From assembly GCA_003556525.1 (NCBI GenBank), contig PWRH01000095.1:1-24805 (forward strand): a stretch of 24,805 nucleotides of DNA. Reading direction: 5' to 3'. The position numbers and the translations under genes are program-made. The notes beneath the pieces were generated by a model. It was not told the DNA's origin. It made no database searches and saw nothing but the letters and a program-made list of their open reading frames with translations. Positions 7,646-14,074 of the stretch are shown in pieces; the stretch's first letter is position 1, and every line of letters begins with the position of its first letter. Origin of the DNA: Candidatus Nealsonbacteria bacterium (GTDB lineage Bacteria > Patescibacteriota > Minisyncoccia > Minisyncoccales > RBG-13-42-11).

Positions 7646-8095
7646 ATGAAAATATTGGCGGAAAATAAAAAAGCAAACTACAAATATTCAATTTTGGAAA
7701 AATTTGAAGCCGGCATTGTCTTAAAGGGGCAGGAGGTTAAATCAATAAAAACCAAGGGGGTAAATTTGACAGGGTCTTATGTTGCTCTTAAAAATCAGGA
7801 GGTTTTTTGGCTGGGCTCAAAAATTCCGGCCTATCAGCCGAAAAATGCACCTCAAAATTACCAACCGGAAAGGCCGAGAAAACTGCTTTTAAAAAAAAAT
7901 GAAATCAAACAGCTGATCGGAAAAACAAAAGAAAAAGGCTTGACTTTGGTGCCTTTAATGGTGTATATTAAAAAAAATAAAATAAAACTAAAGTTTGCCA
8001 CGGCAAAAGGCAAAAAAAAGTTTGATAAAAGAGAATCAATCAAAAAAAGAGAGATTGAAAGAAGTATTAAAAAAGAGTTGAAAGTAAGGGGATGA
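7646..8095 (+). CDS. smpB: SsrA-binding protein
   Basis: ENKKA..Y...EAGIVLKGQEVKSIK, RPRKLLLKK, GKKKFDKRESIK; adjacent to tmRNA. Confidence 0.97.
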   Translation: MKILAENKKANYKYSILEKFEAGIVLKGQEVKSIKTKGVNLTGSYVALKNQEVFWLGSKIPAYQPKNAPQNYQPERPRKLLLKKNEIKQLIGKTKEKGLTLVPLMVYIKKNKIKLKFATAKGKKKFDKRESIKKREIERSIKKELKVRG

Positions 8096-8435
8096 AAAGA
8101 TTCGATGGAGCATTGATTAAAATAAGCAGGCCAAGTTTTTTGGAGCTTGTAAAAACCAATAAAAAAATAAGTGCAAACTTATTCAAACAAGAACCCGCTT
8201 TAGCTTACGCTTAAAGCGGCATCTGATTTGCTGATTCTCGCTAGGCAAAACCCAGGTGTAATATTTAGCGGGACGAAATAACTGCTTTCCGGTTCAAAGG
8301 CGTTATTGGAAAAAATTGGACCAAAAATAAAGAAATTTTTCCTGTTTCAATTCTTTATTTTTAAAAAAACAGGATAAGCTTGTAGAATTATTTTAAAAAA
8401 TGTTTCAGACGCGGGTTCAAATCCCGCCATCTCCA
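8088..8435 (+). ncRNA. ssrA: Transfer-messenger RNA
   Basis: 5' GGGGATG (8088-8094) pairs with CATCTCC (8428-8434) including the G3.U Ala determinant, discriminator A8435. T-arm GCGGG-TTCAAAT-CCCGC. Internal tag frame preceded by ATAAGT. Confidence 0.96.
8173..8214 (+). other. tmRNA tag reading frame, (A)ANLFKQEPALAYA*
   Basis: GCA resume codon at 8173 and TAA at 8212-8214. The stop lies in the CCGCTTTA...TAAAGCGG hairpin. Confidence 0.85.
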
Positions 8436-8461
8436 CATTTAATTAATAATTTTTAAAAAAC

Positions 8462-11762: not shown

Positions 11763-12395
11763 TTAAAATTGGCTTTCCGGTTTTTCTCCGGAAATAAACT
11801 TTGGCTTAAAATGCTCTTTTGAAAAAAGATTTTTTTGAATCAAAGATAAAAATGAAGCGGAAATCAGTCCAAAAAAACTTACCAAAATAAAAACAGCTTT
11901 GAATCCCAAAAAGCTGGCTATTATTCCGCCAAAAGCAGCGGCAAAAGCGGCTGCAAAACCGATTGCCGTACTTTGAAGACTCCAAGAAAAAGCTTCCCAG
12001 CCCTTATCAATGTGTCTGGTAAAAATACCGAACCAACTTGGGACAACACAAGCCATGGCCAAACCTCTAATAATTTCAAGTAAAAAAATATGCCAAAGCT
12101 CGGAAGCGAAAAAATAACCCAAAGGGACCAGGTTGGCAACATACATTCCGTAAATCAAAAACTTAAAATCATCTTTTTCTCCTTTGGTTATATCGAGAAA
12201 ATGAGCAATAAAAGGCTGAGCAATGGATTTAATCATCCAATAGGTTGCGGCAATAAAACCAACAATAATCAAACTTCCGCCCTTAATTTGAGTTGTTATA
12301 AAAATAGCAAAAATCGGTCCGATTAAACCCCAACCGCTGTGGAGAAAAAAATCTGAAAAAATAAGAGTTTTAATAACCTTGTTAATTCCAATCAT
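11763..12395 (-). CDS. Half-size (6-TM) MFS-type membrane protein
   Basis: 210 aa with six hydrophobic helices; GLIGPIFAIF..., EIIRGLAMACVVPSW, GGIIA..LGF patterns of an MFS N-terminal half. Confidence 0.82.
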   Translation of the reverse strand: MIGINKVIKTLIFSDFFLHSGWGLIGPIFAIFITTQIKGGSLIIVGFIAATYWMIKSIAQPFIAHFLDITKGEKDDFKFLIYGMYVANLVPLGYFFASELWHIFLLEIIRGLAMACVVPSWFGIFTRHIDKGWEAFSWSLQSTAIGFAAAFAAAFGGIIASFLGFKAVFILVSFFGLISASFLSLIQKNLFSKEHFKPKFISGEKPESQF

Positions 12396-12441: not shown

Positions 12442-12475
12442 AAAAAACAGCAGCTTGCTTTCATGCAAACTGCTG
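12442..12475 (-). terminator. Intrinsic terminator after the Gre-family gene
   Basis: CAGCAG-T-TTGC-ATGAAA-GCAA-G-CTGCTG followed by TTTTTT on the minus strand. Confidence 0.85.
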
Positions 12476-12488
12476 CCTGACAAATCAA

Positions 12489-12965
12489 TTAAGAAAGACG
12501 GTACTTTATTTTCTTAATCTTATAAGTTGTCTTAACAGGATAAGATATAATAACCTCGTCTTTAACTTTTGCCCCCAAAAGAGCCTTGCCTACCGGAGAT
12601 TCATTGGAGATTTTACCCAAAGAAGGGTTTGCTTCGAGCGAACCGACAATGGTAAATTCATCGTCTTGACCGTCTATTTCAACTAAAACGGTTGCTCCCA
12701 AGTCAACAAGATTTTGACCTTCTTTTTTGGGGGGAGCGATTAATCGGACATTTTTCATAACTTTTTCAAGTTCAGCTATTTTTGAATCCAAAAAAACCAT
12801 ATCTTCCTGAAAAACAAGATATTCCGGATTAAGATCTTCGGAATGTAAAACTTCGGGAGATTCTCCCTTGCTCTTGGTAGCCCTTAATCCTTTCAGTGCT
12901 TCGTATTCTTTCTTTATTTTTTCCAAACCCTTTTTTGTTAAATAAAAACTTTTTTCTTCTGTCAT
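12489..12965 (-). CDS. greA: GreA/GreB family transcription factor with a divergent coiled-coil tip
   Basis: LTKKGLEKIKKE, NPEY, GATVLV..DG, IVGSLEANP..GKISNESPVGKALLG. The GDLSENAEY tip is altered, so the gene symbol is tentative. Confidence 0.88.
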   Translation of the reverse strand: MTEEKSFYLTKKGLEKIKKEYEALKGLRATKSKGESPEVLHSEDLNPEYLVFQEDMVFLDSKIAELEKVMKNVRLIAPPKKEGQNLVDLGATVLVEIDGQDDEFTIVGSLEANPSLGKISNESPVGKALLGAKVKDEVIISYPVKTTYKIKKIKYRLS

Positions 12966-12993
12966 TAAAATAAATAATTTATTGATATTTTTT

Positions 12994-13020
12994 ATAAAAT
13001 CCCCTGTAATTAAGGGGATT
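12994..13020 (-). terminator. Terminator-like hairpin in the gre leader
   Basis: Perfect 8-bp stem AATCCCCT-taattac-AGGGGATT with a TTTTAT tail, ending about 30 nt before the gre ATG. Confidence 0.65.
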
Positions 13021-13066
13021 AGAAGAGAAATCTTATGTTTGTTATTTTTAAAAACTCACTAATCCC
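13015..13066 (-). promoter_or_regulatory. Candidate antiterminator helix, mutually exclusive with the leader terminator
   Basis: GGGATTAG (13066-13059) pairs perfectly with CTAATCCC (13022-13015), which overlaps the terminator left arm. It can extend by GAG/CTC and TTTTA/TAAGA. Confidence 0.6.
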
Positions 13067-13070
13067 ATTT

Positions 13071-13154
13071 TCAAAAAACCTTTTTTCCAATCAAGGCAAC
13101 GACAAAGCAAATTGTCCAGGGTAACTCAAAATAATTTGTAAAATTTGATGCCAT
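13071..13154 (-). CDS. Candidate 27-aa leader peptide, MASNFTNYFELPWTICFVVALIGKKVF
   Basis: ATG about 28 nt after the predicted TSS; TGA ends 4 nt before the antiterminator 5' arm. No independent evidence of translation. Confidence 0.35.
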   Translation of the reverse strand: MASNFTNYFELPWTICFVVALIGKKVF

Positions 13155-13188
13155 TTTGAAAAAAGACCGAAATGATAATTAATATTTA

Positions 13189-13216
13189 ATTATAGGTGGA
13201 AAATAAATCTTGTCAA
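13189..13216 (-). promoter_or_regulatory. Consensus sigma70 promoter driving the gre leader
   Basis: Perfect hexamers TTGACA (13216-13211), N16, TATAAT (13194-13189). Confidence 0.8.
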
Positions 13217-13243: not shown

Positions 13244-14074
13244 ATGGAAATAATTTCAGCTAAAAATATAGGATTTTGTTTTGGAGTCAAAAGAGCGATT
13301 TCTATTACAAAGCAAACCTTAAAAGAAAAAGAAAGGCCGGTCCAGTTTTTGGGTAGCTTAATTCATAATGAAAATGTTGTTAATGGCTTTTTAAAAAAGG
13401 GAGTGGTTTTTAAAAAAAACATCAAAGAAATAAAATCCGGTGTTTTAATAATTCAAACCCATGGCATTCCGCCCTTTTTTAAAAAATTAAAAGTCAAAGT
13501 AGCAATAAAAGACGCTACTTGCCCCTTGGTTAAAAAAGTCCAGTTGCTGGCCCAATCTCTTACGGAAAAAGATTATCAGGTAATTATTATTGGAGAAAAA
13601 AAACATTCCGAAGTAAAAGGAATCAAAGGGTATGCAAAAAAAAGTATAATAATAGAAAACGAAAAAGAAGCGGAAAAAATTCCTTTTTTTAAAAATAAAA
13701 AAGTTGCCTTAATTTCTCAAACAACTCAAAACCTAAAAAAAGTAAGAAAAATTTTTAAAATTTTGAAAAAAAACAATCCCGGCATTAAAAACTTTAAAAC
13801 GGTTTGCCCTGAAGTTGAAAAAAGGCAAAAAGAAACAAAACAAATTATTAAAAAAGCGGATCAAATTCTAATAATAGGGTCTAAAAAATCAGCCAACACC
13901 AAAAGGCTCTATGAAATTTCAAAAAAATCAGGCAAGCCGGTTTATTGGATAAATTCTTTAAAAGAGTTAAAAAAAGAAAAAATAAACAAGCATGCTTCAA
14001 TAGGGCTGATGTCCGGAACGTCAGCTAATGATACTGAAATTGAAAAAATTAAAAATTATTTACTGAAGATATAA
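13244..14074 (+). CDS. ispH: 4-hydroxy-3-methylbut-2-enyl diphosphate reductase
   Basis: Three Fe-S Cys (GFCFGVKRA, DATCPLV, TVC) plus HN, THG, HSEV, SQTT and SANT motifs. Confidence 0.93.
   Translation: MEIISAKNIGFCFGVKRAISITKQTLKEKERPVQFLGSLIHNENVVNGFLKKGVVFKKNIKEIKSGVLIIQTHGIPPFFKKLKVKVAIKDATCPLVKKVQLLAQSLTEKDYQVIIIGEKKHSEVKGIKGYAKKSIIIENEKEAEKIPFFKNKKVALISQTTQNLKKVRKIFKILKKNNPGIKNFKTVCPEVEKRQKETKQIIKKADQILIIGSKKSANTKRLYEISKKSGKPVYWINSLKELKKEKINKHASIGLMSGTSANDTEIEKIKNYLLKI

Follow-up and report, generated by a model that had tools for sequence, protein, structure and literature searches.

The leader at the Gre-family locus

The DNA analysed here, hereafter the window, is a stretch of 24,805 nucleotides (nt) from Candidatus Nealsonbacteria bacterium (contig PWRH01000095.1 of assembly GCA_003556525.1), a member of the candidate phyla radiation (CPR) with a 644-kb genome. 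On its minus strand, a gene for a Gre-family protein is preceded by a leader that carries a consensus promoter, an upstream open reading frame (uORF) and three RNA regions that can pair in two alternative ways. This leader, a candidate transcription attenuator, is the subject of the present study. A first-pass annotation of the window had proposed a promoter, a uORF, complementary arms and a terminator at this place, and each of these parts lies on the minus strand where it had been put:

13211..13216, minus strand: -35 hexamer TTGACA, which together with the -10 hexamer matches the consensus at 12 of 12 positions
13189..13194, minus strand: -10 hexamer TATAAT, with a 16-nt spacer from the -35 hexamer
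13071..13154, minus strand: uORF encoding the putative leader peptide, 27 codons plus TGA at 13073-13071
13055..13066, minus strand: region 1, 5' arm of the antiterminator, with the core GGGATTAG at 13066-13059 and pairing that extends to 13055
13013..13027, minus strand: region 2, the shared arm, which pairs with region 1 or region 3
12998..13005, minus strand: region 3, 3' arm of the terminator stem, AGGGGATT
12988..12997, minus strand: U-rich tract, UUAUAAAAAA, or AUUUUAU when the last bases of the stem are included
12489..12965, minus strand: Gre-family paralog of 158 amino acids, the candidate regulated gene, with its ATG at 12965 and the Pfam domains GreA_GreB_N and GreA_GreB

The promoter TTGACA-N16-TATAAT is the best site in a 2-kb scan and the only one with a 12/12 match. 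Transcription would start near 13182, giving a leader of about 217 nt. The upstream gene, ispH (LytB), starts at 13244 and is divergent, so the 278-bp spacer between it and gre belongs to gre. In the window copy, GGGATTAG begins four bases 3' of the uORF stop, and its exact complement, CTAATCCC, occupies 13022-13015 in region 2. The same region contains AATCCCCT (13020-13013), which pairs with region 3 to form the terminator, an 8-bp stem AATCCCCT / AGGGGATT with a 7-nt loop and a hairpin energy of -10.0 kcal/mol. Because the antiterminator and terminator helices share 13020-13015, they cannot coexist, as the first-pass annotation had argued; its remark that the U-tract is short also holds for this copy. 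Termination would be expected around the U-rich tract at 12988..12997 on the minus strand. Folding energy alone would not flag the element, since the whole leader (218 nt) shows no extra stability over shuffled sequences (z -0.07).

Conservation and distribution

A search for the Gre protein in 40 relatives yielded 30 orthologous loci from different genera, with 55-72% identity. Long spacers, typically of 220-520 bp, precede the gre genes of these loci irrespective of the identity and orientation of the adjacent gene. The layout is present in 27 of these 30 loci, among which the upstream neighbour and its orientation vary, and its parts follow one order: promoter, uORF, G-rich box at the uORF stop, complement of this box 20-35 nt later, hairpin, U-tract and ATG. 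The hairpin in all 27 reuses the complement of the G-rich box, and about 10-13 nt separate the U-tract from the ATG.

A covariance model built on the antiterminator pairing, R1, found one copy per genome in 31 of 151 genomes sampled from the order; of the 30 matches that were fetched, 29 adjoin the gre ortholog on the same strand. The Gre paralog itself is present in 100 of these 151 genomes. Among 20 R1-negative paralog loci, 11 have the same architecture built from other sequence, GGAGGUUUAGUA / UACUAAACCUCC / GGAGGUUCUU, and make up a second class, here called the GGAGG class. When R1 was run on 146 genomes of other orders in the same class, a search that would miss more diverged versions of the leader, it gave a single weak match, which lies away from any gre gene and seems spurious.

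The complete set of parts was detected by an automatic pipeline at 52 loci, from different genera within one CPR order; relatives are labelled Ca. Nealsonbacteria, Ca. Staskawiczbacteria or Patescibacteria. The window copy scores 56.5 bits with R1 (E 8e-8 in its own genome), and it is this score, together with the same parts in 52 loci, that marks it as more than a chance arrangement. The earlier expectation of conservation upstream of CPR gre genes was thus borne out, with the layout preceding the same gene across genera and families.

Individual parts are conserved to different degrees in the 52 loci. Upstream of the uORF, the promoter matches TTGACA-N16-TATAAT at 10 or more of 12 positions in 49 loci and perfectly in 25; it is near-invariant, and unusually consensus-like given the divergence of these loci. 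The terminator hairpin ranges from -6 to -16 kcal/mol and is followed by a U-tract in all loci, mostly of four to six U in the relatives. Between the end of the stem and the ATG the median gap is 12 nt, too short to accommodate a second promoter. In at least 8 loci, insertions of 50-167 nt lie between the hairpin and the ATG, and the element is retained. One such insert, of about 80 nt and with an internal inverted repeat, is present in several genera (L014 1975-2057, minus strand; also L002, L010 and L012); it is a multi-copy repeat in those genomes, with up to 9 matches in G012, and is possibly a miniature mobile element.

Two alternative helices around a shared arm

In a model-guided alignment of 26 sequences, 84% of cells are in standard pairs and nine of 11 pairs have changed on both sides, values that none of 500 column shuffles attained. 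As a control, the partners were slid by 1-3 columns, after which 40-58% of cells paired. Because this kind of alignment leans towards the model, an alignment-free swap test was added, in which RNAduplex computed the pairing of each of the 52 region-1 windows with all of the region-2 windows. Region 1 binds its own region 2 at a mean of -18.1 kcal/mol, against -13.3 kcal/mol for permuted partners (standard deviation 0.38), and region 3 binds its own region 2 at -13.6 kcal/mol, against -10.7 kcal/mol. For neither helix did any of 20,000 permutations attain the observed mean; the first 27 loci were also tested. Since the 12-nt cores of region 2 comprise 46 distinct sequences among 52 loci, a single sequence is not being counted repeatedly. 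Covariation in relatives, raised earlier as a prediction, is therefore found in both helices. A plain MAFFT alignment with RNAalifold had given five terminator pairs only, owing to register shifts, and was replaced.

The energies of the two states were compared by folding, for each of the 52 loci, the segment that spans region 1 through the terminator stem. With region 3 blocked, the antiterminator state has a mean of -17.4 kcal/mol; with region 1 blocked, the terminator forms, at a mean of -11.8 kcal/mol. The antiterminator is the stabler state in 50 of the 52 loci, and the unconstrained minimum free energy (MFE) structure lacks the terminator in 40. The two-state picture of the first-pass annotation is upheld by this comparison, with the terminator appearing when region 1 is masked. 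As the naked RNA would read through, region 1 would have to be covered for the terminator to form.

A conserved upstream partner for region 1, which would be a fourth region, was sought with a negative or marginal result (mean z -0.76; swap test 230/5000). The element is thus a three-region switch, and an untranslated leader should read through. The likeness to the 2:3 versus 3:4 layout of classical attenuators that had been noted for the window holds as far as the exclusive helices go, and falls short in that there are three regions and no conserved partner for region 1. The stretch between regions 1 and 2 (5-38 nt) is A/U-rich and without conserved columns, and thus shows no conserved ligand-binding core of the riboswitch type. 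With Rfam 15, only transfer-messenger RNA (tmRNA) reaches the gathering score in the window, and matches in the leader are at chance level (E about 1 or more). Taken together, we regard it as very probable that a genuine cis-regulatory switch between terminator and antiterminator exists at these loci.

The uORF and the position of its stop codon

All 52 flagged loci have a uORF. Measured upstream to the nearest in-frame stop, its open frame spans 43 codons at the median; in the two alternative frames the corresponding figure is 10. The commonest uORF length is 34 codons (20 of 52 loci), a peak that is somewhat inflated by a choice among in-frame ATGs that favoured about 34 codons. The distance from the uORF stop to the first paired base of region 1 has a median of 0 nt (range -11 to +30): the sequence of the stop and region 1 is typically UGAGGGGAUUAG and faces CUAAUCCCCUCA of region 2, which makes the stop codon part of the helix. 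This stop is UGA in 33 of 52 loci; in the window genome, stops of long open reading frames are TAA in 74%, TAG in 13% and TGA in 13%. The uORFs of the GGAGG class continue across region 1, their stop codons lying about 10-15 nt past it. In both classes, therefore, the position of the stop would place a finishing ribosome on or against region 1. The earlier suggestion that a ribosome at the uORF stop masks the antiterminator agrees with this geometry, the stop lying normally within the antiterminator 5' arm.

The uORF stop is a median of 32.5 nt away from region 2 and 58 nt away from the point where the terminator stem ends. In a closely coupled expressome, the P site of the ribosome and the active site of the polymerase are about 30-40 nt apart. 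A coupled polymerase would thus be entering region 2 at the moment when the ribosome arrives at the stop, an agreement that may be a coincidence.

Two properties of the window genome bear on whether such a leader could work there. Upstream of 346 long open reading frames, a Shine-Dalgarno signal occurs at 6.9%, against a background of 8.3%, which indicates no usage; the lack of such a site before the uORF is therefore normal and no objection. Upstream regions in this genome are A/U-rich and G-poor. Terminator-like hairpins were counted in 37 of 344 cases after genes and in 8 of 354 inside genes, an enrichment suggesting that this polymerase probably uses such signals.

A ribosome-dependent attenuator as the proposed mechanism

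The best explanation of these features, and one that we consider probable, is a three-region, ribosome-dependent transcription attenuator in which the ribosome translating the uORF sets the switch. A strong constitutive promoter would drive a leader encoding a short peptide, and the uORF would end on or in region 1, usually with a UGA stop that forms the first pairs of the region 1:region 2 helix. If a ribosome follows close behind the polymerase and is positioned at the uORF end during transcription of regions 2 and 3, it would cover region 1, region 2 would pair with region 3, and transcription would stop at the resulting terminator about 12 nt before the ATG of the gre paralog. If the ribosome is absent, whether late, stalled upstream or never initiated, region 1 would pair with the emerging region 2, and this stabler helix would preclude the terminator, allowing the Gre paralog to be transcribed. 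Expression of the paralog should then rise as translation lags behind transcription. We infer translation of the uORF, termination at the hairpin and the physiological condition read out from sequence. Look-ups of sequencing runs for this DNA listed DNA metagenomes from salt and soda lakes only.

What the switch responds to is a more delicate matter. Only tentatively would we name transcription-translation uncoupling or polymerase pausing as the biologically relevant signal. A more specific version, in which the leader is a dedicated coupling sensor whose conserved nascent peptide holds the ribosome on the antiterminator arm, and which controls a non-canonical, secondary-channel Gre paralog that rescues or restrains polymerases that have outrun their ribosomes, is more speculative still. 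With a target that works on RNA polymerase, the state of translation would influence the transcription machinery itself, and such a sensor, if true, would be a feedback that matches polymerase behaviour to ribosome speed in bacteria with a minimal regulatory repertoire.

A copy of the switch upstream of metE

The only one of the 30 fetched R1 matches that lies outside gre (L056, G069:C4 1496-1760, minus strand) precedes metE. It shares with the gre leaders the promoter, uORF, regions 1 and 2 and terminator, and metE (Pfam Meth_synt_1 and Meth_synt_2) starts 11 nt after the terminator. Its uORF contains four internal Met residues, three of them within five residues (VVMGMVMSF); in the 52 gre-leader uORFs, no five-residue window contains more than one Met. 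This copy looks like a methionine-sensing leader-peptide attenuator, in which charged tRNA would be read via the position of the ribosome. The combination of the same switch with a Met-rich uORF supports the ribosome dependence of the switch and indicates that it is modular. The gene is rare, being found in 2 of the 151 genomes of the order, and the gre paralog of G069 retains a leader of the second class.

The leader peptide

The peptides encoded by the gre leaders share a feature that the first-pass annotation did not mention, a conserved C-terminal part. Their first half is variable and rich in K and N, and their last 16 residues or so are conserved, reading roughly K-(K/W)-V-Y-A-I-I-V-L-T-F-G-K-(M/L/I)-I-(R/C)-stop in the main class. 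Among 33 class-1 peptides, F is found at position -6 in 25, K or R at -4 in 25, and L, V or I at -8 in 28. The last residue is R or C, and the Arg codons used there are CGU, CGA, CGG, AGG and AGA. No leader peptide matches a Pfam or NCBIfam family, and no enriched residue or regulatory codon run was seen in the gre-leader uORFs beyond the K/N/I bias of an AT-rich genome.

These features suggest a refinement of the attenuator, in which the C-terminal residues act in the exit tunnel, slowing release at the stop codon as in TnaC or sensing a small molecule, release factor or recycling factor, so that the state being sensed would be termination or the tunnel and not simply coupling. The use of both CGN and AGR codons for the terminal Arg fits such a nascent-peptide sensor, as does the conserved C-terminus beside its variable N-terminal half. 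In 20 closer pairs (70-98% nucleotide identity), the ratio of nonsynonymous to synonymous changes (pN/pS) was 0.46 in the uORF frame and 1.02 and 0.78 in the other two. Over all 33 class-1 uORFs, however, the ratio was the same in the three frames (0.82, 0.85 and 0.75), a comparison made uninformative by sequence saturation and imperfect anchoring. The evidence for selection on the peptide at the amino-acid level is modest. The strong preference for UGA as the uORF stop would fit slow release as well, but can also be explained by base pairing between its GA and the UC in region 2. Furthermore, the GGAGG class reads through region 1 and has other C-termini, which speaks against a universal peptide motif, and the leader peptide is unlike any known arrest motif. 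On balance, we consider a nascent-peptide sensor unlikely.

The regulated gene and possible autoregulation

The protein downstream of the leader matches the Pfam families GreA_GreB_N (27.8 bits) and GreA_GreB (73.1 bits). It lacks the acidic tip GDL(K/R)EN with equivalents of D41 and E44: in the HMMER alignment to E. coli GreA (1grj), it has a 2-residue gap at K43-E44, and its own tip, SEDL--NPEY, is conserved in 30 orthologs. A second Gre gene of the same genome lies on another contig (L081 700-1152, minus strand, in G000:C31) and has the canonical tip GDLRENAAY; this canonical GreA gene has no leader and is only about 40 nt from its upstream gene. Outside the order, the best matches of the paralog are only about 40% identical to it, no better than the canonical paralog. 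The first-pass annotation had named the gene simply as a Gre factor. Both Gre domains bear this out, but judged by its sequence, the gene behind the leader is not canonical GreA: it is a Gre paralog specific to the order, and its catalytic tip is altered. Without an equivalent of E. coli GreA E44, the paralog may not stimulate cleavage at all. Whether its activity is cleavage stimulation, inhibition of the Gfh1 kind or something else bears on the purpose of the circuit.

The link to a Gre-family gene, at 29 of 30 fetched matches, raises the possibility of autoregulation, in which the Gre paralog would act on a paused or backtracked polymerase in the leader, the terminator would read Gre activity, and the uORF would be secondary. 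There is precedent in E. coli, where the greA leader terminates to give GraL and itself acts in cis in the autoregulation of GreA; this repression acts via cis leader sequences and the terminator, and needs catalytically active GreA (PMC6829880). In addition, a genome-wide survey of Proteobacteria, bacilli and clostridia placed greA/rnk seventh among the gene families predicted to carry attenuators, with an antiterminator in each (Naville & Gautheret 2010, PMC2965389). Nevertheless, nothing in the sequence of the CPR leader requires a Gre factor, the paralog's missing E44 equivalent makes it a doubtful cleavage factor, and the same switch drives metE in one genome. Autoregulation alone would also leave unexplained a uORF with its stop on the antiterminator arm, which is the most conserved geometric feature. 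It can coexist with the ribosome-dependent attenuator, and is in our view improbable as the explanation of the leader.

Several other features of the window and its genome were recorded. Directly 3' of the gre paralog is a strong terminator-like hairpin of 14 bp with a U-tract (12445-12478, minus strand), after which comes a gene resembling the major facilitator superfamily (11763-12395). The tmRNA gene is at 8088-8438 on the plus strand (Rfam RF00023, 141 bits). When the whole window genome (G000) was scanned for further terminators that lie just before genes and have an upstream complement, the output was too noisy for interpretation. In this genome, a 171-amino-acid open reading frame on contig G000:C74 (start at 835, plus strand) has a hairpin, GTCTGCGGTAAGCGCAGAT, followed by UUUUU, 35 nt upstream, with an upstream complement of -18 kcal/mol, and this hairpin may belong to another attenuator.

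Weaker alternatives and points against the attenuator

Two further explanations were weighed. The uORF could be an independent small-protein gene with a leaky terminator, gre being the distal gene of a two-gene operon that is transcribed by fixed partial read-through, and the region 1:2 helix merely stabilising the short transcript. A strong promoter and a conserved open frame, length and C-terminus are what such a gene would show. A stabilising hairpin, however, needs neither an arm shared with a terminator nor an overlap with the stop codon, and both helices covary about one shared arm. The peptide matches no family, its roughly 11 hydrophobic residues are too few for a membrane helix, and the element was never found away from the 5' end of a regulated gene, all of which makes this explanation very unlikely. 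Least credible of all is translational control, in which the 2:3 hairpin would hide a ribosome-binding or standby site of gre, the alternative helix would free it and the U-tract would be incidental: the hairpin does end about 12 nt before the ATG in most loci and region 3 is G-rich (AGGAGG in the second class), but the genome does not use Shine-Dalgarno sites, the G-run of region 3 is 13-19 nt from the ATG, the insertions of 50-167 nt occur without loss of the element, and a U-tract follows the stem in every locus. Region 3 as a Shine-Dalgarno site was likewise rejected, given a genome with no such signal and a spacing that is long and variable.

The ribosome-dependent attenuator itself has points against it. 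The loci are related, so all of the statistics overstate independence. Control by the leader is dispensable, since some paralog loci are leaderless with a plain promoter: this is the case in 9 of the 20 R1-negative paralog loci, and 3 of the first 30 paralog loci are leaderless or variant. The metE leader is known from one genome, and a relative of the same genus has metE without it. A pure race between ribosome and polymerase needs no conserved peptide, and the conserved C-terminus hints at something more specific; at the same time, the codon-level support for selection on the peptide is weak, with the comparison over all pairs giving no difference between frames. The window copy is also atypical. 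Its uORF has 27 codons, against the usual 34, and its stop falls 7 nt short of the paired part of region 1, where elsewhere the two overlap, so that a terminating ribosome would cover region 1 only partly. Its antiterminator is weaker (-12.8 kcal/mol, against -10.4 kcal/mol for the terminator state), its unconstrained MFE structure already has the terminator, its U-tract is weak, and its terminator-ATG gap is 32 nt, against a usual gap of about 12 nt.

Comparison with known systems

Terminators in Gre leaders are already known. The comparative data presented here suggest a concrete mechanism by which such a leader could sense, namely the occupancy of the antiterminator arm by a ribosome at the end of a conserved uORF. 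The element is among the few cis-regulatory RNAs defined for CPR bacteria, and comes with about 50 natural sequence variants. In a literature search, no paper combining Patescibacteria with transcription attenuation was found.

With GraL (Potrykus et al. 2010, PMC2836576; Dylewski et al. 2019, PMC6829880), the CPR leader shares a leader terminator on a Gre-family gene, a strong promoter and an output by read-through. It differs in its conserved uORF that ends on the antiterminator arm, whereas no leader peptide has been described for GraL; there is no sequence relation (no Rfam match), and the gene is a divergent paralog instead of canonical GreA. The greA- and rnk-leaders predicted by Naville and Gautheret (PMC2965389) show that terminator and antiterminator alternatives recur upstream of Gre-family genes and mark this family as prone to attenuation, but they belong to other phyla and different sequence families; CPR bacteria were not covered, and no ribosome-dependent mechanism or conserved uORF was proposed.

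The attenuators of trp, his, leu, thr and pheA likewise have a leader open reading frame, a terminator before the gene and an exclusive antiterminator, with the position of the ribosome deciding between the two. The metE copy in G069 fits this class directly. The gre leaders, in contrast, have no regulatory codon run and three regions instead of four, so that an untranslated leader should read through instead of super-attenuating. Their product is a transcription factor and not a biosynthetic enzyme, and the C-terminus of their peptide is conserved.

Mechanistically, attenuators induced by ribosome stalling are the closest known systems. In PA5471.1-armZ of Pseudomonas aeruginosa and in ermK, bmrB-bmrCD and vmlR of Bacillus (for vmlR, PMC9226507), full translation of the leader leads to termination, and a held-up ribosome leads to the antiterminator and to expression of a gene that deals with impaired translation. 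These systems respond to ribosome-targeting antibiotics and control efflux, methylase and ABCF genes, whereas the target here acts on RNA polymerase. For the sensing of coupling, the closest counterpart is the E. coli pyrBI attenuator, which responds to coupling itself by reading how far RNA polymerase is ahead of the first ribosome. Its polarity is opposite: a close ribosome prevents the terminator hairpin and brings about read-through in pyrBI, and would favour termination in the CPR gre leaders.

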